Shown piece after piece: positions 238 through 28,164 of a DNA stretch of 29,012 nt. Position numbers and translations under genes: made by a program. Within the stretch, counting starts at the first letter, position 1; each line of letters begins with the position of its first letter. The notes beneath the pieces are model-generated. The model worked only from the letters and a program-made list of their open reading frames with translations, had not been told where the DNA came from and made no database searches. The stretch is from the IMG/VR virus record IMGVR_UViG_2879731240_000003. The stretch is one strand, 5' to 3'. The stretch comes from a virus. Lineage: Duplodnaviria; Heunggongvirae; Uroviricota; Caudoviricetes.

Positions 238-846
238 TGAACCGGTAACTCACGATGAGAAACCCAACAATCCCACCGGGTGTGACGGTGGAGAACCTGA
301 GCGGCAGTGACCTGCGGCATGCCCGCAGGGTGATGTAACCCGCTGACAACGGGGATTGAGGCGAGATCACTAAGCCGAGATGATCCTCAAGGTTAAGTAC
401 TGAAAGGCTGAAGAACATGAACCCGTTAATCCGCCTCTGTGGGTTGAAAACGTCACCACGGCCTACGTGATCTGACAGGCCGTGCAGGAGGAACTGGCAG
501 TGATACGTAAGCACTGCCGGTCGAAGGTGTTTTGACATGTATGCGAAACACCGGGGCAGCAGCGTCTATCACACTTGCGTTGCTGACTTCTGCCAACTTG
601 CGGCAAGCAAGGATAAAGAGTGCGACGGGCAGCCTCCTCAGTATGCCTGAGTCCAGGCAGGTAAACCGGGGAAGGTCAGCGACGGATGTTAAGGGGGCAT
701 GGCTCCGATGACGCGCTGGCTGGCGGAGCTTCCGTAGTAGTCCGCGATGGGGAAAGCCCATTACATGGCGAAGGGAAGCAGTTTGAATGTGTTTGCGACG
801 TGAATTAACTGACCTAACGAGGTGAAGACCTTTGATAATCAGCGAA

Positions 847-2355
847 ATGCAACGCAAGCTTGCCACATGGGCAGCCACCGATCCGTCCCTACGGATTCAA
901 CGGCTGCTGCGTCTGATAACACAACCAGAATGGCTGGCTGAAGCGGCGCGGATCACGCTTTCATCAAAGGGGGCCCATACCCCCGGCGTTGATGGCGTGA
1001 ACAAAACAATGCTACAGGCCAGACTGGCTGTTGAGCTGCAAATCCTCAGGGATGAATTACTCTCAGGCCACTACCAGCCCTTGCCCGCCAGACGGGTTTA
1101 CATCCCTAAAAGCAACGGCAAACTGCGACCACTGGGTATCCCCGCGTTGCGGGATCGTATTGTTCAGCGGGCCATGCTGATGGCGATGGAGCCGATATGG
1201 GAGAGTGATTTTCATACGCTCTCATATGGCTTCCGGCCTGAGCGCAGTGTCCACCACGCGATCCGCACGGTGAAATTACAGCTCACAGACTGTGGTGAAA
1301 CCCGGGGACGCTGGGTGATTGAAGGCGACCTGTCCAGTTACTTCGACACCGTACATCATCGACTGCTGATGAAGGCTGTACGCCGCAGGATCAGTGACGC
1401 ACGTTTCATGACTCTGCTGTGGAAAACCATCAAGGCGGGACATATCGATGTCGGTCTCTTTCGGGCGGCCAGTGAAGGTGTGCCACAGGGCGGTGTTATA
1501 TCGCCGCTATTATCGAACATCATGCTGAATGAGTTCGATCAATACCTGCATGAGCGCTACCTGAGCGGGAAAGCCAGAAAAGATCGGTGGTACTGGAATA
1601 ACAGTATCCAACGGGGCCGAAGTACGGCGGTCAGAGAAAACTGGCAGTGGAAACCCGCGGTGGCGTACTGCCGCTATGCCGATGATTTTGTCCTCATCGT
1701 CAAAGGCACCAAAGCACAGGCGGAAGCCATCAGGGAGGAGTGTCGGGGTGTGCTCGAAGGCAGTCTGAAACTCAGGCTGAACATGGATAAGACTAAAATC
1801 ACCCATGTTAATGACGGCTTTATCTTTCTGGGGCACAGGATCATTCGCAAACGCAGTCGTTATGGCGAGATGCGAGTGGTCTCAACGATCCCGCAGGAGA
1901 AAGCCAGAAACTTCGCCGCATCGCTGACAGCACTGTTATCAGGCAACTACAGTGAAAGCAAAGTCGATATGGCTGAACAACTCAACCGAAAACTGAAAGG
2001 CTGGGCCATGTTCTATCAGTTCGTTGATTTTAAGGCCAAAGTCTTCAGTTATATCGACCGTGTCGTGTTCTGGAAGCTGGCTCACTGGCTGGCCCGCAAA
2101 TACCGTACAGGTATCGCTTCCCTGATGAGGTGGTGGTGTAAATCACCGAAACCGGGTCAGAGCAAAACGTGGGTTTTATTTGGTAAAACCAATCACGGCA
2201 AGCTCAGCGGCGAAATACTGTACCGGTTGGTGGGGCAAGGCAAGAAGCTGTTCCGCTGGCGGCTACCCGAAGGTAATCCCTATCTGAGGACGGAGACCAG
2301 AAACACGTATACATCGCGCTTTACAGAAGTGGCAATGGCGTTCGCCAGCATTTAA
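847..2355 (+). CDS. Group II intron-encoded protein (reverse transcriptase / maturase); no obvious C-terminal endonuclease domain
   Basis: RT motifs including PLGIP..DRIVQ, PQGGVISPLLSNIMLNEFD and YCRYADDFVLIV (YADD); maturase/X-like region after the RT. ORF track starts at TTG 832; first ATG is 847. Confidence 0.9.
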   Translation: MQRKLATWAATDPSLRIQRLLRLITQPEWLAEAARITLSSKGAHTPGVDGVNKTMLQARLAVELQILRDELLSGHYQPLPARRVYIPKSNGKLRPLGIPALRDRIVQRAMLMAMEPIWESDFHTLSYGFRPERSVHHAIRTVKLQLTDCGETRGRWVIEGDLSSYFDTVHHRLLMKAVRRRISDARFMTLLWKTIKAGHIDVGLFRAASEGVPQGGVISPLLSNIMLNEFDQYLHERYLSGKARKDRWYWNNSIQRGRSTAVRENWQWKPAVAYCRYADDFVLIVKGTKAQAEAIREECRGVLEGSLKLRLNMDKTKITHVNDGFIFLGHRIIRKRSRYGEMRVVSTIPQEKARNFAASLTALLSGNYSESKVDMAEQLNRKLKGWAMFYQFVDFKAKVFSYIDRVVFWKLAHWLARKYRTGIASLMRWWCKSPKPGQSKTWVLFGKTNHGKLSGEILYRLVGQGKKLFRWRLPEGNPYLRTETRNTYTSRFTEVAMAFASI

Positions 2356-2417: not shown

Positions 2418-2924
<507 letters not shown>

Positions 2925-2932
2925 CCACTTCA

Positions 2933-3096
2933 GAAGGCTTTGGATTACCGTCTGGTGATACGTGAATATACTCTCTTCCAACCATCCAGCATTCTTTCCG
3001 GGTCCGAAGAATTGTGCCTGGTTTGAGCCCGGTAATTGCGATTAGAACGCTTTCACAAACCCATTCATTGGGAGCCAGTTGAATCACATTGCCCAT
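2933..3096 (-). pseudogene. Hypothetical small gene whose 3' end is cut by the IS911-like insertion
   Basis: Minus-strand ORF MGNVIQLAPNEWVCESV..HVSPDGNPKPS preceded by a GAGGT ribosome-binding site; the frame runs into the IS right end at 2932 and only terminates inside IS sequence. Confidence 0.35.
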
Positions 3097-3104
3097 GCAT
3101 TACC

Positions 3105-3251
3105 TCACACAACACTCAGCCCACGGCAGTGGCACCAGACCTCAAACATTCGTTTCACAATTTCACGACAGTAGAAACCGTCAACATCTCGCGTCAGGTC
3201 GTAGTGGTTGCCGTAACGCTGGTGGACCCATAGCTCAAACGCTTTATTCAT
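3105..3251 (-). CDS. Small Cys/His-containing protein (48 aa), possible zinc-binding prophage protein
   Basis: My own translation (below the ORF-track size cutoff): MNKAFELWVHQRYGNHYDLTRDVDGFYCREIVKRMFEVWCHCRGLSVV, preceded by AGGAAG ribosome-binding site; four Cys/His in the C-terminal half. Confidence 0.4.
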   Translation of the reverse strand: MNKAFELWVHQRYGNHYDLTRDVDGFYCREIVKRMFEVWCHCRGLSVV

Positions 3252-3254
3252 TTT

Positions 3255-3497
3255 TTACTTCCTTTGCATTGCGCGTAATTTCTTCAGGTGCTTTTCTTGT
3301 TCTGTTTCAGCCAGAATCTTGTGATATTCCAGGTGGTCAATATGCTCGAACAGGCTACTGAATTCACCGATGCGTACTCGCCCGGTACGTCCGTCCATCC
3401 TCCGAAAGAACACTGAGTGCTCAGTACTGCGAGTAATTTCTACTGGGTATCCGGCTCTGTCTGTGTATATCTGCCCGCGTTGAATCAAAGCGAACAT
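3255..3497 (-). CDS. Hypothetical prophage protein (about 80 aa; alternative upstream start gives 92 aa)
   Basis: ORF track 3255..3533(-); internal ATG at 3497 gives MFALIQRGQIYTDRAGYPVEI..KHLKKLRAMQRK. No family recognised. Confidence 0.4.
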   Translation of the reverse strand: MFALIQRGQIYTDRAGYPVEITRSTEHSVFFRRMDGRTGRVRIGEFSSLFEHIDHLEYHKILAETEQEKHLKKLRAMQRK

Positions 3498-3501
3498 GTG
3501 G

Positions 3502-3585
3502 TTATCCCCATCGACAAATCGAGTACACAACAAACGCTACTGCGAATACCATCCCCAGAGTTACGATTGCATCAGGCCAGCTCAT
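3502..3585 (-). CDS. Very small hydrophobic peptide (27 aa), possible membrane peptide
   Basis: My own translation: MSWPDAIVTLGMVFAVAFVVYSICRWG with strong upstream CAGGAGG ribosome-binding site; sits between the clamp-like gene and the 80-aa ORF. Confidence 0.25.
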   Translation of the reverse strand: MSWPDAIVTLGMVFAVAFVVYSICRWG

Positions 3586-3620
3586 TGATTCACCTCCTGC
3601 GGCGTCCTGGTATTCGATTT

Positions 3621-4190
3621 TCATTCCGGATGCTCCTGAGCCACGTTGAAATCGCCATGATCACGACAAGGCATCACAACAAATTCAGGATTGCCATACA
3701 TTGAGTTGATGATGGAATCAAACTGAATTCTGACCGCTTGCCCGTCACCGGAGGGACGTAACTGGACGGGAATAAATTTACGCTCACGACCAAACATCTT
3801 CTCTGGATAACTCAGGTAACCCGCCTGGAGCACCGGGTGAGTACAGCGGTCAAACTTTTTCGGAATGATGCGATCCAAATCCGGAAAACAACCGTCCACC
3901 AGTTTAATGCCGGTAATGGACAGTCGTCGCTGAAACTGGTCGCGATGAACAGCGATCGGCTCTTTACTAAAAATCAGCTCTGTCGTTTCGGCTTTGGCCG
4001 GGACGCCCCCTTCGAACTGGACAATGATGTTTTTCTTCGTCCGGATGCCGTGAGCCATGCGCAGTGCCACGGAACCATTGGTTGCCTCAATATGTTTCGG
4101 CGTGATGTGAAGACCGTTCAGGTAATAACGAACGTCGTTTTTAGCAGCGCACACCAGAGCGGCGCGAATAAGTTTTGACTGGATGATCAT
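3621..4190 (-). CDS. Truncated beta sliding clamp (DnaN)-like protein, 189 aa
   Basis: Motifs NDVRYYLNGLHI and KLVDGCFPDLDRIIPK resemble E. coli DnaN QDVRYYLNGMLF and KLVDGRFPDYRRVLPK; C-terminus ..EFVVMPCRD resembles DnaN ..AYVVMPMRL (remembered sequence). About half the length of a real clamp. Start ATG overlaps the upstream stop (ATGA). Confidence 0.6.
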   Translation of the reverse strand: MIIQSKLIRAALVCAAKNDVRYYLNGLHITPKHIEATNGSVALRMAHGIRTKKNIIVQFEGGVPAKAETTELIFSKEPIAVHRDQFQRRLSITGIKLVDGCFPDLDRIIPKKFDRCTHPVLQAGYLSYPEKMFGRERKFIPVQLRPSGDGQAVRIQFDSIINSMYGNPEFVVMPCRDHGDFNVAQEHPE

Positions 4191-4936
4191 GCTTTATCCT
4201 CCCATCCGATCACCTGGAAAAGCCCCATCTTCGGGTGATACCAGCGTGTGCCGCGTGGGTCAGCCTCTGACATCATTTGGTGGAACGCCGCCATAAATGG
4301 CTCAAGCTCGACGATAGCCCTGCGAGACAACAGACCGTCCGGAGTCATGAATTCGTGGGTGTCTGTAGGAATTTGATATGCGTTCACCAGATTCCGACAC
4401 TTGGTGTCACTCATTCCACTTTTGGCTACCACCTGGCGGTAACCGACATATCCGGCGCGCATATTTCCGCGTTTGATGGTTTCCACCGCTTCTGTGACTG
4501 TTTCGAGCTGTTCTTCCACATGATTCAGGCGCTTCTGTTGACGAACAGCGTCGGCGGCTATCGCAGCGATCATCTCGATTTCCGTTAGCGGTGTGCGAGT
4601 GCGGAAGTAGCTGTTAACCAGTTCGCGCTGAACCTGCCAGGCAAGGGCGTCATTGAATGGCTTCGTCAACATCAGGTAACCTGATTCAAAAAGTACAATC
4701 CCCGATGGTGCAAATTTAGAGAATGTTCCTTCCGGGAGGTCCGTACGTATTACGTCCGCACCTAATTCGGCATAATCCACACCGCTGATGAAATGCTCAC
4801 GGTTTCGGTTGAATGCTGCACGCGCGGTTCCTTCCGGTCGCTGGTGGACTTCATCAATCATCGCCAGCGTCACAACACGCTGACCGCGATATTCGATTAC
4901 CGGAAACTGTTTGTTGTTGATGGTTACAGTATTCAT
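4187..4936 (-). CDS. Phage antirepressor-like protein (Bro-N/ORF6N/KilA-N-type N-terminal domain, uncharacterised C-terminal domain)
   Basis: Likely start MNTVTINNKQFPVIEYRGQRVVTLAMIDEV.. at 4936 with GGAG ribosome-binding site; the N-terminal pattern resembles ORF6N/Bro-N antirepressor domains (from memory, moderate). Confidence 0.5.
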   Translation of the reverse strand: MNTVTINNKQFPVIEYRGQRVVTLAMIDEVHQRPEGTARAAFNRNREHFISGVDYAELGADVIRTDLPEGTFSKFAPSGIVLFESGYLMLTKPFNDALAWQVQRELVNSYFRTRTPLTEIEMIAAIAADAVRQQKRLNHVEEQLETVTEAVETIKRGNMRAGYVGYRQVVAKSGMSDTKCRNLVNAYQIPTDTHEFMTPDGLLSRRAIVELEPFMAAFHQMMSEADPRGTRWYHPKMGLFQVIGWEDKA

Positions 4937-4979
4937 TTTTATCTCCAGACAGCCCGGCGTGTAATACCGGGCATATGTA

Positions 4980-5807
4980 TTACTTAACCTGAATAAATGG
5001 TGTGTTGGCACCGCTGGTCATGTATTGCGGCAGTGTACCGTTCCACTTGTTGATGGCTTCCAGCTCCATAACGTTTGGGTTCTGGCGCAGAGCTTCACCG
5101 CGTAAACGAATAGCATCGGCTTCGGCCTGGGCTTTTGTGCGAATCGCATCTGCCTGTCCGGCAGCTTCCGCGCGCAACATGTTGGCTTCCGCTTCGCGCT
5201 GTTTTACTTCCTGCTCGCATTGCAGGGTTTTCTGGTTCGCCGTGACTTTGGCATTAATGCTGTCGATAACAGTAGGCGGGTACTCCGGCTTACCCACATA
5301 TGAGAGGCTCATTACCTGAATACCGATGGGCGTCATTTCTTCCTGAATGTCTTTAAGAGCTGCATCCAGCAGCTCAGACTTGCCGCCGTCGATAAATTTG
5401 TCGGTGGTCATTTTGCTGGCCAGTCGGTTGAGTGCGTCGGCTATCTTCTGGCGCAGGTCGGTGTCGGTAATGTCGTCCACGCCTTTGCGGTAGGTCTGAA
5501 AGACTGTGGTAACTTTGGATGGATCAACTTTGTAGGCCACGCCGATGTGATAGCCGATGGTTGTACCGTCACTCATCTGGAAGCTGAATGGCTCATCGTA
5601 GGTCTTCATTTGTTTGAAGGTCGGGAAGATGTAAACCTCAGTGTTCCATCCCGTCCAGTAGCGCCCAACACCGACCACTTCTCCGACGCCTTTATCGTCG
5701 CCCAGTTTGTTTACCTTGATGCCAACATTACCAGGCTCAACGCGATCGCAACCGACAAGTCCGGTGGTCAGCAGAACAAGGGCTAAAGCAGGAATAACTT
5801 TTTTCAT
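4980..5807 (-). CDS. SPFH/band-7 (prohibitin/HflC-like) domain lipoprotein
   Basis: N-terminal signal with lipobox (MKKVIPALALVLLTTGLVGC); SPFH core (..IGIQVMSLSYVGKPEYP..) followed by Ala/Glu-rich coiled region (QREAEANMLRAEAAGQADAIRTKAQAEADAIRLRGEA) typical of HflK/C and YqiK-like proteins. Confidence 0.8.
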   Translation of the reverse strand: MKKVIPALALVLLTTGLVGCDRVEPGNVGIKVNKLGDDKGVGEVVGVGRYWTGWNTEVYIFPTFKQMKTYDEPFSFQMSDGTTIGYHIGVAYKVDPSKVTTVFQTYRKGVDDITDTDLRQKIADALNRLASKMTTDKFIDGGKSELLDAALKDIQEEMTPIGIQVMSLSYVGKPEYPPTVIDSINAKVTANQKTLQCEQEVKQREAEANMLRAEAAGQADAIRTKAQAEADAIRLRGEALRQNPNVMELEAINKWNGTLPQYMTSGANTPFIQVK

Positions 5808-5992
5808 CTTTTATCCTTAGAAAAAGAAAGACCCTTATAAATGGCATAAATGCAGGGCGGGGTCAGACACGCCAGAGCAAAGCCAGAAATCACTGCTACC
5901 GTATCCTTCATTGATATGAGGGCCGGAACGATTAATCCGTAAATACATGCGATAATTGCCAGTGATATAACTATTCTGAAATAAATGTTCAT
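5804..5992 (-). CDS. Small two-helix membrane protein, translationally coupled to the SPFH gene
   Basis: MNIYFRIVISLAIIACIYGLIVPALISMKDTVAVISGFALACLTPPCIYAIYKG..; strong CAGGAGGA ribosome-binding site; 4-nt overlap with the SPFH start. Confidence 0.5.
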   Translation of the reverse strand: MNIYFRIVISLAIIACIYGLIVPALISMKDTVAVISGFALACLTPPCIYAIYKGLSFSKDKR

Positions 5993-6304
5993 GGTCCTCC
6001 TGATGTATTCGGCTTGCCTTATTTAATTGCGTCATGGTTAATTTCGTTTACGTCAGAATGGTTTTGTTGCCATCAGTTCGTAATATCCGGCGCTCCATGT
6101 GTCATATTTTCTGAACCATTTTTCTGTATACTGTTTCCTGGCGATGAGTCTGCGCAGTCGTCTGATTGTTCGCTGGTGTGCGCGGGTATACTCTGTGGTT
6201 GATTCTCCACGTTTCCATATCTCATTCCCGTTGAAGATAAAACGCTTGTCAGGATGGCGTTGTGAGGTGTACTGGCAATAGCGGACACTACCATTTGTTC
6301 TTTT

Positions 6305-7123
6305 TTAAGCAGCCATCTGATGATATTTTTCCCTGAAGGCTGCCGGGGAGATATTCCCCAGACGAGAGTGACGACGCTGACGATTGTAGAAAATCTCAAT
6401 GTATTCCCGTATTACTGAGATGGCTTCATCCCGGTTATTAAAACGATAGTGGCTCAGGCTCTCATTTTTCAGCGTTCCCCAGAAGCTTTCCATCGGAGCG
6501 TTGTCGTAACAGTTACCTTTACGCGACATTGATGTTTTCAGACCAGACTGCTCCTGTATGACCCGGTAATCGTATGCGCAGTACTGTGAACCTCGATCAG
6601 AGTGGTGGATTAGCCCGGCAGGTGGGCGCTGGCTCCTGAGCGCCATAAACAGGGCTTTACCTGTCAGCTCTTTTGTCATGCGCTCTCCCATGGCGTAGCC
6701 GACAATTTCACACGTATAAACATCTTTGATGCCAGCGAGGTACAACCATCCCTCCTGTGTGGCAACATACGTCAGGTCCGCCACCCAGACCTGATTTGGT
6801 GCTGTAGGAGCGAACGTCTGGTTCAGCAGATTTGGCGCAACTGGCAGATTGTGGTTCGGGTTCGTAGTCGCTCTGAACTTGCGTTTCTGCTTACAGCGTA
6901 GCCTCAGCTCCTTACGAAGACGTGCCAGTCGGTCACGACCAACGATGATGCCATTCTCTGCCAGCTCCGTCTGGAGCCGCCGGGTTCCATATGTTTCGCG
7001 AGTGCGGATATGTGCCACCTTAATCTCCAGTTTTAGCCGCTCATCACTTTGTTTTCTGTCTGAGGGTTCATGCTGTACCCAGTTGTAATAACCGCTCCTG
7101 GATACACCAAATACCTGACACAT
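6305..7123 (-). CDS. IS600-like transposase OrfB (integrase core); made as an OrfAB fusion by -1 frameshift, so the true N-terminus lies upstream
   Basis: ..NQVWVADLTYVATQEGWLYLAGIKDVYT..HHSDRGSQYCAYDY..KGNCYDNAPMESFWGTLKNE.. (IS3-family DDE signature). Confidence 0.85.
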   Translation of the reverse strand: MCQVFGVSRSGYYNWVQHEPSDRKQSDERLKLEIKVAHIRTRETYGTRRLQTELAENGIIVGRDRLARLRKELRLRCKQKRKFRATTNPNHNLPVAPNLLNQTFAPTAPNQVWVADLTYVATQEGWLYLAGIKDVYTCEIVGYAMGERMTKELTGKALFMALRSQRPPAGLIHHSDRGSQYCAYDYRVIQEQSGLKTSMSRKGNCYDNAPMESFWGTLKNESLSHYRFNNRDEAISVIREYIEIFYNRQRRHSRLGNISPAAFREKYHQMAA

Positions 7124-7158
7124 CGCTTCAATGGGAAATTGTTGTCGCCATTGTTCGA

Positions 7159-7461
7159 TTAACGCGTATTTTTCAGCGACTCCTGTGCAAAATACGCTGT
7201 TGCTTTTTTTAATATATCTCGCTCAAGGCGAGCTTCATTTAACGCCTTACGCAGTTGCAGAATTTCAGATTCCAGTTCAGCCACCGTGCGGGAACCAGGA
7301 GTACCGAGCCCTTTTCTGGCGGCGGTAACCCATTGTCCTAAAGTGCCTTCAGGAAGAGATAATCGGGAAGCGCCTTCACTGATCGAAAGTTGATTTTCAA
7401 GAACCGTTCTGACAGCTTCGGCTTTGAACTCTTTAGAGTAACGTTGGGTTTTTCTGCTCAT
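7159..7461 (-). CDS. IS600-like transposase OrfA (helix-turn-helix / leucine zipper)
   Basis: MSRKTQRYSKEFKAEAVRTVLENQLSISEGASRLSLPEGTLGQWV..LESEILQLRKALNEARLERDILKKATAYFA; slippery AAAAAAG near its 3' end. Confidence 0.85.
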   Translation of the reverse strand: MSRKTQRYSKEFKAEAVRTVLENQLSISEGASRLSLPEGTLGQWVTAARKGLGTPGSRTVAELESEILQLRKALNEARLERDILKKATAYFAQESLKNTR

Positions 7462-7527: not shown

Positions 7528-7665
7528 ATGGTACCCGCGCTTCGGGAACTGATGCAGGCGAAGCATCGCGCACAGAAAGCAGTAGATGAGCTGGTGGACT
7601 GTGTGGCAGAGCTGGAAACCAGAGTCGGAAAGTTTGAAAAGCTGGTGCAGGAGGTGCTGCGCTGA
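7528..7665 (+). CDS. Small nin-region ORF (45 aa from the first ATG); possibly 5'-truncated by the IS600-like insertion
   Basis: MVPALRELMQAKHRAQKAVDELVDCVAELETRVGKFEKLVQEVLR; stop overlaps the rusA start (TGATG); the reading frame is open back into the IS end. Confidence 0.3.
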   Translation: MVPALRELMQAKHRAQKAVDELVDCVAELETRVGKFEKLVQEVLR

Positions 7666-8024
7666 TGCGCCATGAGTTTATTTTACCTTATCCGCCGACG
7701 GTGAATACTTACTGGCGACGTCGTGGCAGCACATATTTTGTATCAAAAGCCGGTGAGCGTTATCGCCGGGATGTGGCGCTTATTGTCCGTCAGCAGCGAC
7801 TGAAATTAAGCCTGTCCGGAAGACTGGCGATAAAGATTATTGCAGAGCCACCGGATAAGCGGCGTCGTGACCTGGACAATATCCTGAAAGCACCACTGGA
7901 TGCACTGACACATGCGGGGTTGCTTATCGACGACGAGCAGTTTGATGAAACCAATATTGTGCGCGGACTGCCTGTTCCTGGTGGTCGGTTGGGGATAAAA
8001 ATCACAGAGCTGGAGTGTGCATGA
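7665..8024 (+). CDS. rusA: Holliday junction resolvase RusA (lambdoid nin-region endonuclease)
   Basis: 119 aa; LPYPPTVNTYWRRRG..KRRRDLDNILKAPLDALTHAGLLIDDEQ..GGRLGIKITEL matches the RusA family pattern. Confidence 0.9.
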   Translation: MRHEFILPYPPTVNTYWRRRGSTYFVSKAGERYRRDVALIVRQQRLKLSLSGRLAIKIIAEPPDKRRRDLDNILKAPLDALTHAGLLIDDEQFDETNIVRGLPVPGGRLGIKITELECA

Positions 8025-8710
8025 ATAACCAGTATTTACAGTTTGTTCGTGAGCAGCTCATTATCGCCACCGCTGATTTGAGTGGGGCGACAAAAGGTCA
8101 GCTTGAAGCCTGGCAGGAGAATGCCATGTTCGATACAGGGCGTTACAGGCGTAAAAAAATCCGGTACCGCGATGAGGTGACCGGAAAAATGATAACGCGG
8201 GATAATCCACCAATCCCGGGAAAACAATCACTGGCGAAGGGGGCGTCAATTCCTCTGGTCAGTCAGGTTGCGTTTTCGACATCATCGTGGCGGCGGGCTG
8301 TTCTGTCTCTTGAAGAGCACTATAAAGCCTGGTTGTTGTGGTGTTACAGCGGAAGTATTTGCTGGGAGTATCAGATCACCATAACCCACTGGGCGTGGGA
8401 AGAGTTTAAGGCTCATTCTGGCACTAGGAAAATTGCAGAGAAAACACAGGAACGCCTGAAAAAATTAATCTGGCTGGCGGCGCAGGCGGTAAAAGCAGAA
8501 CTTTTTGGTGGGGAAGGTTATGAATATCAGGAGCTGGCATTACTGGCGGGAGTAACAACCAAAAACTGGTCCAAAACATTTACTGGTCACTGGGTTGTAA
8601 TGAAACACATTTTTCACCGACTGGATAGTGAGGCTTTATTGTTTGTGATGAGAACACGTTCAGAACAAAAAGCGGCATTTTCAAAGCAAAGTATTGCAAA
8701 AGTAGATTAA
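8021..8710 (+). CDS. Hypothetical protein in the position of the late-gene antiterminator Q (assignment positional only)
   Basis: 229 aa from ATG 8021 (overlaps rusA stop, ATGA); sits between rusA and a terminator-like hairpin plus tRNA cluster, as Q does in lambdoid phages. I do not recognise the sequence itself. Confidence 0.35.
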   Translation: MNNQYLQFVREQLIIATADLSGATKGQLEAWQENAMFDTGRYRRKKIRYRDEVTGKMITRDNPPIPGKQSLAKGASIPLVSQVAFSTSSWRRAVLSLEEHYKAWLLWCYSGSICWEYQITITHWAWEEFKAHSGTRKIAEKTQERLKKLIWLAAQAVKAELFGGEGYEYQELALLAGVTTKNWSKTFTGHWVVMKHIFHRLDSEALLFVMRTRSEQKAAFSKQSIAKVD

Positions 8711-26412: not shown

Positions 26413-28164
26413 TTATGAATGGTGCAGTTGTGAGCCGTTTTCAGGCAATCGCAGGGCCAGTACCTCGTCAGTCAGCTGACGGTAAATCTGCTGTTCAGTC
26501 TCACGCATCACCTGTGCACCGGCTTCCCTCTCCGCATCCGCATCACCGCTCAGACCTGATGCTTTCAGCCGGTCAGCCACCCTCTGAGGGTACTCATTCT
26601 CCAGCATCTCATATTTCTGCTCTTCTGCCTGCGCCCAGCGGTCAGCTTCCGTACGCTTCAGTACAGCATGCCATGGTCCCCAGAGGGAGAACCAGTCCGT
26701 AAATTCATTCTCTTCACGGCTTCTGACCATGGCTTCGGCAGTGCGGAGGTCATTTGCTGTCACTCCCGACACGCCATAGAAACGCATTTCCTTCACGGCA
26801 GTGGAGAGCTGAAGTTTCTCTGCGAGCATGGTCTGGAAGGCCAGGTAGACTTCTATCTCATCCACAAAATGGAGAGTTCTGACTTTATCCCGGGCAATAT
26901 CCTCCAGAATTTCGAGGCGGAACATTTCCCTGCCCAGGGAGAGCAGAGCGCCGGTATCATTATCGAAAAGGCCTTCTGATGCCTGATGGACCAGGAGGGT
27001 TTTCCGGAGATTGTTCCATGTGAGCGCGACACGGTCCTCACAGCTCTCAGTGGCATCAGCAGCAACAGCGAAAGACTGCTGTCGAAGCTCCGCAGAGGCA
27101 CTGAGTTTTTCCAGCCATGCAGCGACCTGTTCACGGAATCCGGAGGTATTGCGTGCAGAGACGGTATCGGAAAGGCGGTCAAGGAACGCGGAAAAGGTGT
27201 TGGCGTGCTCTTCATGTTCAAAAGCATGCCATATCTGTGATACATCAGATTGTTTGTTTTCCGGGAACCATGCTGTCACGGCATCAGCCAGGGGGCGATG
27301 GAGTGTATTCTGTTGTCCGTCACTCATGGAGAAGTAAATCTGCGGGCCGTGGTAGTCCGGCGAAGATGTTAATCTTTGCAGGGATTGCAGAGCATGGGAT
27401 GACAATGGGTTATCACTAATATCTATTGAACATTCATTCCTCAGATTAAGAATGCTTTCCGGGATATGACTTATCTGATTTATGTCAAAATAACCGTTCC
27501 TTAAATTTTCCGGCAGGTATGGAATATCGGTTAACATATTGTCGATTGCCCATATGGAGTGAATGTTGTGAGGTAGAGGGGGGAGTTCACTAAGAAGATT
27601 CCCTATTGCGCTAATCTCTTGTAAAGAAAATGGTAAAGGTGGTAAAACTGCCAGCCCATTACATGATACATCTAATGTTTCCAGTAGTTCTGGTAAAACA
27701 GGAAGAGAACATAATTGATTATTTGAGACATGAAGCTCCTTCAAAGATATGGGGAGTGTGGGTAGTGTGATTAGTTGATTGTGGGACGCATTCAATAATT
27801 TAAGTCCTTGAGGCAAAGCAGGCAGTTCAATAAGTCTGTTATAGCTGACATTAAGTTGTGTAAGGGACGCAGGCAATGGGGAGATTAAGCTTAAATTATT
27901 TTTACTTATATTAATTGATTTAATTCCCGGGGGGATTTCAGGTAATGTTGTCAGGCCTAATTCAGACAAGTCCAGGTTCGTCTCTTGGTTTTGTAGACAT
28001 GATACTAGTCGCTGAAAAGCGATGTCTCGTTGTTCTTCTTGTATGCGGTTATTTTTCCATTCAGTCCAATGGGTTAGATAATTTTCATATGCGCGGCTAG
28101 TGTCGATTGAATAAGTGGAGAACGAATTTGAAATTAATCTGTGATTGTTATTTGTCGGGAGCAT
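26413..28164 (-). CDS. ipaH: IpaH-family type III secreted effector: N-terminal leucine-rich repeats plus C-terminal NEL-type E3 ubiquitin ligase domain
   Basis: 583 aa; N-terminus MLPTNNN..; about nine 20-residue LRRs (L..LP.LP..L..L.VS.N.L); C-terminal domain with the catalytic CEDR motif (..ADATESCEDRVALTWNNLRK..) matching Shigella IpaH proteins from memory. Confidence 0.95.
   Translation of the reverse strand: MLPTNNNHRLISNSFSTYSIDTSRAYENYLTHWTEWKNNRIQEEQRDIAFQRLVSCLQNQETNLDLSELGLTTLPEIPPGIKSINISKNNLSLISPLPASLTQLNVSYNRLIELPALPQGLKLLNASHNQLITLPTLPISLKELHVSNNQLCSLPVLPELLETLDVSCNGLAVLPPLPFSLQEISAIGNLLSELPPLPHNIHSIWAIDNMLTDIPYLPENLRNGYFDINQISHIPESILNLRNECSIDISDNPLSSHALQSLQRLTSSPDYHGPQIYFSMSDGQQNTLHRPLADAVTAWFPENKQSDVSQIWHAFEHEEHANTFSAFLDRLSDTVSARNTSGFREQVAAWLEKLSASAELRQQSFAVAADATESCEDRVALTWNNLRKTLLVHQASEGLFDNDTGALLSLGREMFRLEILEDIARDKVRTLHFVDEIEVYLAFQTMLAEKLQLSTAVKEMRFYGVSGVTANDLRTAEAMVRSREENEFTDWFSLWGPWHAVLKRTEADRWAQAEEQKYEMLENEYPQRVADRLKASGLSGDADAEREAGAQVMRETEQQIYRQLTDEVLALRLPENGSQLHHS
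27414..27996 (-). repeat. Tandem degenerate roughly 60-bp repeats encoding the IpaH leucine-rich repeats
   Basis: Periodic LRR units in the translation and a visibly AT-rich periodic DNA segment. Confidence 0.6.

Follow-up and report, generated by a model that had tools for sequence, protein, structure and literature searches.

The window, a 29,012-nucleotide stretch of Caudoviricetes DNA (IMG/VR record IMGVR_UViG_2879731240_000003), encodes a 189-residue relative of the bacterial β sliding clamp DnaN, comprising both motifs of domain II and the second motif of domain III. This 'mini-clamp' has three of the six motifs of a DnaN protomer and, judging by alignment, keeps the arc that builds the clamp-binding motif (CBM) cleft together with the DNA-contacting loop II. 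We propose, at a probability of about one half, that it docks host CBM proteins without forming a ring, serving as either an adaptor or a decoy. Bacterial replication and repair both centre on the β clamp, which is also a drug target and whose clients all use one cleft; if the proposal is true, the mini-clamp family would be a natural soluble 'CBM receptor', a clamp trimmed to its cleft-forming arc. It could then be used to chart the clamp interactome and to guide the design of inhibitors or decoys, and would probably represent a new way for phages to take over the host or recruit a replisome.

A half-length homologue of DnaN

The first-pass annotation of this DNA had read the gene as a half-length DnaN homologue on the strength of two motifs, naming a profile search and an AlphaFold model as checks. 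Searched as a single sequence, the mini-clamp falls below the cut-offs of the curated DnaN families (Pfam DNA_pol3_beta_2, 17 bits against a cut-off of 27; TIGR00663, 21.2 bits against 137.65). The family profile gives a far stronger signal than the lone sequence: built from 34 homologues and run against the PDB, it matches DnaN chains at E = 3e-15, and hhalign of the family to E. coli DnaN returns a probability of 98.5%. The AlphaFold2 model is a confident, compact monomer (pLDDT 91.7, pTM 0.87). Homology is significant in both sequence and fold, the protein is a genuine homologue at 189 aa against 366 aa, and both motifs (DVRYYLNG and the inter-domain connector) are real, with defined counterparts in DnaN (Table 1).

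The same annotation had noted that the start of the gene overlaps the stop of an antirepressor-like gene, and this ATGA is present. The minus strand across the junction reads GGGAGGATAAAGCATGA, with a good Shine–Dalgarno sequence before the overlapping start. A second ATGA (3621–3624) couples the mini-clamp stop to a 40-aa ORF, which is annotated by PGAP in E. coli and has 100% nucleotide identity to its counterpart in the intact E. coli prophage L001. The 249-aa product of the upstream gene matches anti-repressor families (Pfam PF10543, E = 2.1e-12; PHROG 1726, 1.4e-69) and is best placed among the ORF6N (KilA-N-like) regulators, with a putative anti-repressor role. Its full-length AlphaFold2 model is poor (pLDDT 55) and was relied on for the C-terminal domain only (pLDDT 71–84).

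Table 1. Features of the mini-clamp gene, its operon and the surrounding prophage (window positions)
Feature	Position	Strand	Remarks
Group II intron RT	832..2355		
Truncated transposase	2508..2924		
Truncated excisionase	2899..3096		
DUF4222 gene	3255..3533	-	Downstream in operon; Pfam 1.8e-15
40-aa ORF	3502..3624	-	Hydrophobic stretch at the C terminus; by eye, a transmembrane peptide
Mini-β-clamp CDS	3621..4190	-	189 aa, 21.4 kDa, pI 9.2; DnaN domain II + second half of domain III
VVMPCR, end of the residue 117–176 motif	3663-3680	-	DnaN VVMPMR 360–365
Residues 117–176, single β-α-β-β-β motif	3663..3842	-	DnaN 316–365 (second half of domain III); from HMM and secondary structure
LVDGCFPDLDRIIPK, residues 97–111, inter-domain connector	3858..3902	-	DnaN 236–250, with cleft residues P242, R246, V247
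ATNGS, residues 36–40	4071..4085	-	DnaN A171–H175; T172 and G174 retained
DVRYYLNG, residues 19–26	4113..4136	-	DnaN loop II/cleft D150–G157, including R152 and L155; from translation
ATGA overlap, ORF6N stop/mini-clamp start	4187..4190	-	From sequence
GGAGG ahead of mini-clamp start	4198-4202	-	From sequence
ORF6N-domain, anti-repressor-like gene, 249 aa	4187..4936	-	N-terminal ORF6N, long helix, C-terminal winged-helix-like domain
SPFH/Band-7 lipoprotein gene	4980..5807	-	Upstream, same leftward operon; Pfam Band_7 6e-31, PHROG 200
IS3-family element (orfA, orfB)	6305..7461	-	Pfam rve + HTH_Tnp_1
Genuine RusA gene	7665..8024		Annotation of the same prophage
IS110	9896..11092		
ipaH gene	Right end of window		

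Three motifs of six

The model is formed by three contiguous β-α-β-β-β motifs: residues 2–46, with a helix; residues 55–97, whose four strands are accompanied by a 10-residue loop in place of the helix; and, past a connector, residues 117–172, again with a helix. In alignments, the first 115 residues match DnaN 136–251, which covers domain II and the connector. Beyond this point HMMER and hhalign continue the alignment colinearly with the first half of domain III, although a different assignment fits better. A C-terminal profile from 139 diverse members aligns end to end with DnaN 316–366 (28.8 bits, E = 4.5e-11), compared with only 2.0 bits for DnaN 245–315, and the family consensus (eigfNaeYL...iiMPmRi) parallels EIGFNVSYV...VVMPMRL of DnaN. 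The better Foldseek alignments span 254–269 columns for a query of 189 residues and must therefore skip about 65 DnaN residues. This skip and the fit of the C-terminal profile together identify the protein as domain II joined to the second half of domain III.

Relative to E. coli DnaN (366 aa; PDB codes 1MMI and 2POL), the phage protein lacks domain I and the half of domain III bearing I272, L273 and E298–E304, and hence cannot be a normal three-domain ring subunit, as its length had already suggested on the first pass. In the DnaN dimer, I78, F106 and R103 meet I272, L273, E298 and E304 across a head-to-tail interface (PMC11139829); both segments are missing here, leaving no interface of the DnaN type. 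Throughout the family a short loop (16 residues in 122 of 139 members) takes the place of the domain II pore helix, and the protein is basic (pI 9.2, family median 8.4) whereas DnaN is acidic (pI 5.25). Fold searches of the PDB returned full-length clamps only, none of them with the mini-clamp architecture.

Conservation centres on the CBM cleft

The hydrophobic cleft of DnaN docks the CBM (QL[SD]LF-like) of polymerases, the clamp-loader δ subunit, MutS/MutL and Hda. Subsite I is lined by R152, L155, T172, G174, H175, R176, L177, P242, R246, V247, V360 and M362, and subsite II by H175, N320, Y323, V344, M362, P363, M364 and R365 (reviewed in PMC11139829). Of these 18 residues, 11 are the same in the window protein and E. 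coli DnaN and 3 more are conservatively replaced; with adjacent positions included, the two agree at 14 of 21, compared with 27 of 134 at other positions (Fisher p = 3e-5). Conservation within the family follows the same surface. In an alignment of 139 relatives sharing at most 50% pairwise identity, 18 positions are at least 80% conserved, and they comprise 10 of the 18 cleft residues (R152, L155, T172, G174, H175, P242, Y323, M362, P363 and R365) versus 8 of 171 non-cleft positions (p = 1e-7), the latter including the cleft neighbours D150, Y154, G157 and G239. The R, Y, Y and L of DVRYYLNG are invariant across 34 homologues. Loop II is likewise kept; its DnaN equivalent (H148–Y154) touches DNA and Pol II/IV, with D150 and R152 essential (PMC5042465).

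Mapping also identifies departures from DnaN. Ser replaces the bridging His175 in the E. coli/Shigella clade, the intact-prophage copy included, and R176 and L177 are not retained, so specificity may differ from that of the host clamp. Part of the cleft enrichment could reflect fold-critical packing and the profile-based selection of members, because the cleft residues are also the most conserved in DnaN itself. On this alignment the conserved core of the family falls on the CBM cleft, and peptide binding is predicted. An earlier suggestion that a phage-borne clamp fragment might bind host clamp partners is indirectly strengthened by the coincidence of this core with the cleft, while the binding itself stands as a prediction.

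A proposed docking role in phages without an annotated polymerase

Mini-clamp genes lie in or beside early and DNA-metabolism regions, except for two copies among structural and packaging genes. Dam-type methylases are found within two genes of them in Vibrio R19R, L008, L011 and Skarpretter, lambda P adjoins the gene in L008, and the intact E. coli prophage carries a DEAD helicase and a toprim protein; these varied neighbourhoods indicate no single pathway. Two lytic phages, DS8 and Skarpretter, were inspected in full: both have genes for an SF2 helicase, primase, ExoVIII, annealing protein and SSB, and neither has an annotated DNA polymerase. A scan of the phage helicase, primase, ExoVIII, annealing, SSB, ParB-like and Dam proteins of five carriers found no conserved CBM. 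This result, with the resemblance of the cleft to that of the host clamp, makes host clamp clients the likely ligands. A PADLOC search for defence systems gave no matches for the mini-clamp, ORF6N or SPFH proteins.

We propose that the mini-clamp is not a loaded, closed sliding clamp, given the loss of the ring-closing domain I and first domain III motif and of one pore helix, and the basic charge. It would rather work on its own as a docking module that seizes host proteins by their CBMs early in phage development, and it may itself bind DNA directly; peptide binding, the non-ring state and any physiological effect are all predicted properties of this module. One tentative form of it, slightly favoured, is an adaptor that would deliver components of host Pol III or the clamp loader to phage DNA. 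The carriers have their own helicase, primase and recombinase, with no annotated polymerase in the two inspected in full, and the basic charge and frequent DNA-binding neighbour also lean towards recruitment. The other form, a pure decoy titrating clamp clients (δ, Hda, MutS/L and translesion polymerases), is possible but doubtful, and a general Pol III/δ decoy would hurt phages reliant on host replication. A cleft outside the ring can be a strong trap, as a monomeric β mutant binds clamp-loader δ about 50-fold tighter than the dimeric ring does (PMC11139829).

A more far-reaching reading, which we hold to be unlikely, is that mini-clamps are viral replication factors of a new class. Needing no loader, and non-ring or unusually assembled (as a head-to-head dimer or D2 tetramer), these clamp pieces would sit on phage DNA, perhaps placed there by a neighbouring DNA-binding protein, and hijack host Pol III, clamp loader or repair enzymes via the cleft. 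Kazlauskas et al. (2016) left the stand-alone Pol III β homologues of polymerase-less phages unexplained (PMC4889955); the new class, if real, would account for them, and the mini-clamp family makes that puzzle directly testable.

Less probable again is a true encircling or C-shaped clamp assembled from 1.5-domain subunits and acting as a processivity factor. Such a clamp could be a D2-symmetric homotetramer, whose 4 × 3 = 12 motifs equal those of the DnaN dimer, or a head-to-head dimer like cytomegalovirus UL44. Set against this arithmetic are the family-wide loss of one of three pore helices, the confident prediction of a compact monomer (pTM 0.87) and the want of an annotated cognate polymerase or clamp loader in the phages examined. 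A D2 ring would also expose cleft faces on both sides, unlike known clamps, and clamps cannot distinguish viral from host DNA (Kazlauskas et al., PMC4889955). The herpesvirus factors HSV UL42, HCMV UL44, KSHV PF-8 and EBV BMRF1 have two complete, PCNA-like domains and always accompany a cognate viral polymerase, whereas the mini-clamp is DnaN-like, comes from phages that, where fully inspected, have no annotated polymerase, and falls outside the UL42/UL44 type. The nearest functional analogues of a docking module would be these non-ring clamp-fold factors, along with engineered monomeric β (I272A/L273A), in which the CBM cleft is presented outside a ring much as proposed for the mini-clamp (PMC11139829). 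The engineered protein is a full-length, three-domain laboratory mutant, whereas the mini-clamp is natural.

The DNA-binding neighbour

The gene is present in 60 of 5,426 complete E. coli genomes (~1%; 59 full-length copies and one at 86% coverage) and is therefore an accessory gene. An ORF6N gene adjoins 59 of these 60 copies and a BRO-N gene the remaining one. Across the prophage clade the upstream genes are anti-repressor-like with swapped N-terminal domains (ORF6N, Bro-N or pRha), and three of four aligned neighbour proteins have a C-terminal domain in common, the Providencia protein being without it. A ParB-like HTH protein is encoded just upstream in DS8, Pu29 and Eta. More distant prophages place DUF5406, a 190-aa ORF or small ORFs immediately upstream. 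The co-expression proposed on the first pass is consistent with the ATGA coupling, which holds in 59 of 60 E. coli copies; ORF6N coupling is co-expression here and the partnership is not obligate, because the upstream gene varies and the shared C-terminal domain is far more widespread, occurring in Rha-family regulators on more than 1,000 contigs.

These arrangements bear on the idea that the mini-clamp is a cofactor of the adjacent sequence-specific DNA-binding protein (ORF6N/Bro-N/Rha in prophages, ParB-like HTH in lytic phages), the two forming a joint site-specific platform for transcription or replication control, comparable to the role in late transcription of the T4 clamp gp45. A further precedent is phage Mu C, which is reported to enlist the β clamp through a CBM (PMC12867686). 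A gene with a DNA-binding domain lies at most three genes upstream in 8 of the 13 contexts examined, the mini-clamp is translationally coupled to one in the window, and the exchange of N-terminal domains on a shared C-terminal domain in three of four neighbours would suit such a partner. We nonetheless consider the cofactor role improbable: the C-terminal domain is far commoner than the mini-clamp, the immediate neighbour changes between genomes and several contexts have no DNA-binding neighbour at all.

A CBM-like KMGLF near the C terminus of the ORF6N protein was considered as a mini-clamp ligand and set aside. Its surrounding segment is invariant in every homologue, the many without a mini-clamp neighbour among them, and AlphaFold2 places the motif in a β-hairpin of the folded domain, making it uninformative for the cofactor role.

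Phage proteins aimed at the host clamp

G1 ORF240 and N4 gp8 are phage proteins aimed at the host clamp system, and P1 encodes Hot, a homologue of the Pol III holoenzyme subunit θ. Twort Gp168 also targets the host clamp system (PDB code 7evp; PMC8565349). A docking module would resemble these four in interfering with, or borrowing, host Pol III machinery. Whereas the inhibitors bind the clamp or δ and are small, unrelated proteins, the mini-clamp is itself a piece of clamp and would compete for clients.

That phages do attack the clamp system, as Gp168 illustrates, lends some plausibility to the early suggestion of poisoning, read here as the mini-clamp binding host β itself, where it would cap an opened ring or form mixed assemblies and so poison clamp loading or function. 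The protein probably presents free β-sheet edges that in DnaN pair with neighbouring motifs. We regard this reading as very improbable, as the protein lacks both surfaces through which DnaN subunits meet (domain I and the first half of domain III), and conservation is strongest on the CBM cleft rather than along the sheet edges. Poisoning, one of several conceivable outcomes, also fits awkwardly with DS8 and Skarpretter, which would rely on host Pol III and a working clamp, no polymerase being annotated in either.

A large family and a damaged prophage

A HMMER scan of 1.84 billion representative sequences found 11,516 relatives at E ≤ 1e-3 and 2,417 at E ≤ 1e-10. The best 150 of the 11,516 are mostly 170–215 aa with end-to-end coverage, alongside a few shorter fragments. 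Family members come from phage groups of Salmonella, Escherichia, Klebsiella, Vibrio, Proteus, Burkholderia and others. Fold matches in BFVD at TM 0.7–0.8 are phage proteins of 163–250 aa, mostly ~180–210, and dN/dS against the E. coli orthologue is 0.16. The family is thus large, uniform in length, basic, phage-borne and under purifying selection; a literature search turned up no work on the structure or function of short phage DnaN homologues. Fels-1 carries a partial copy only.

The host element in the window is a defective Shigella-type prophage with an intact mini-clamp gene (Table 1). In the intact L001 prophage of E. coli, the mini-clamp sits in the leftward early operon between a LexA-family repressor and xis/int. 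By comparison, the IS3 element of the window splits the early-left operon remnant from the expected site of the repressor and pL. Because the operon is severed from its promoter and no sigma-70-like promoter was found in 2900–6400, this copy may be silent although intact, and is itself an ordinary, probably silent member of the family. Its heavy disruption by IS elements, the lost promoter and the partial Fels-1 copy would suit a remnant without function, whether a decaying piece of dnaN or the chance frame entertained on the first pass, but at the family level this is effectively refuted by the thousands of relatives with one length and architecture across many phage groups, the dN/dS of 0.16, the strong Shine–Dalgarno sequence with translational coupling and the confident fold.

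Annotation pipelines already know the family, sometimes under the wrong name. PGAP calls the mini-clamp a 'beta clamp domain-containing protein', and it belongs to PHROG 3007 (match at 6e-65 over residues 1–179 of 189), which is labelled 'RusA-like Holliday junction resolvase'. The mini-clamp has no match to RusA (PF05866), and the genuine RusA gene of the prophage lies elsewhere (Table 1). As a practical correction, the widely propagated RusA-like label of PHROG 3007 is wrong.

Neighbours of the mini-clamp

The prophage genes upstream of the half-length DnaN homologue (mini-clamp) encode regulators whose N-terminal DNA-binding domain varies, being ORF6N, Bro-N or pRha. A conserved C-terminal domain ending PRGTRWYHPKMGLFQ..GW is common to the three upstream proteins aligned (with the window protein), in an alignment that left out the Bro-N protein of G3/10. 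An AF2 model of this domain (pLDDT 71-84) suggests a winged-helix-like fold, and E. coli Rha-family regulators commonly carry the same domain.

Another neighbour is an SPFH/Band-7 lipoprotein gene, which is co-operonic with the mini-clamp in two unrelated phages, the window prophage and lytic Skarpretter, and whose products have similar C-termini in the two. This pairing could be a recurrent association or else coincidence. On the other side of the mini-clamp lies an ORF of 40 aa whose C-terminal stretch is hydrophobic and, judged by eye, makes it a putative transmembrane peptide; the nucleotide sequence of this ORF is 100% identical to an E. coli prophage copy, and PGAP annotates it in that prophage. 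No sigma-70-like promoter was detected within window positions 2900-6400.

Features of the window and of other mini-clamp loci
Feature	Locus	Coordinates	Strand	Remarks
Group II intron reverse transcriptase/maturase ORF	window	832..2355	+	RVT_1 + GIIM
Truncated IS transposase	window	2508..2924	+	adjoins group II intron ORF
40-aa ORF	window	3502..3624	-	coupled to mini-clamp stop through second ATGA; own AGGAG
Upstream regulator	window	4187..4936	-	
Upstream regulator	L016 (prophage)	3317..4072		
Upstream regulator	L014 (prophage)	3818..4648		
Upstream regulator	L019 (G3/10)	4564..5379		
SPFH/Band-7 lipoprotein	window	4980..5807	-	same operon as mini-clamp
SPFH/Band-7 lipoprotein	L018 (Escherichia phage Skarpretter)	3042..3893		same operon as mini-clamp
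IS3-family element	window	6305..7461	-	
RusA + Q antiterminator	window	7665..8710	+	RusA, 7665..8024; remain between IS3-family and IS110-family elements
IS110-family element	window	9896..11092	-	
IpaH-type effector	window	26413..28164	-	LRR + NEL E3 ubiquitin ligase; prophage right end

A degraded prophage in a Shigella-type genome

We place the window in a Shigella-type genome because it carries an IpaH-type gene and because its ORF6N protein is 100% identical to a Shigella flexneri protein. The group II intron ORF sits at the expected position of the prophage integrase, and the IS3-family and IS110-family elements have eliminated the regions for immunity, replication and lysis.

Annotation and trimmed forms of phage clamps

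PHROG 3007, the mini-clamp family, is wrongly named 'RusA-like Holliday junction resolvase'; no RusA similarity was found for the mini-clamp protein, and the prophage has a genuine RusA gene elsewhere. This label has propagated to many GenBank phage records, among them those of Bas79, Bas81, Eta, Skarpretter and SeSz-2.

Salmonella phage Fels-1 (NC_010391.1 2529..2849) holds only a partial mini-clamp, residues 80-187 at 70% identity, split across two annotated hypothetical proteins; this copy may have arisen by decay or recombination. Phages also encode beta-clamp homologues of intermediate length, about 237-266 aa (BFVD matches; for example, in Escherichia phage Seurat, Rhodococcus phage REQ2 and Burkholderia phage BcepNazgul), which suggests that phage clamps form a series of trimmed architectures beyond the 1.5-domain form alone.
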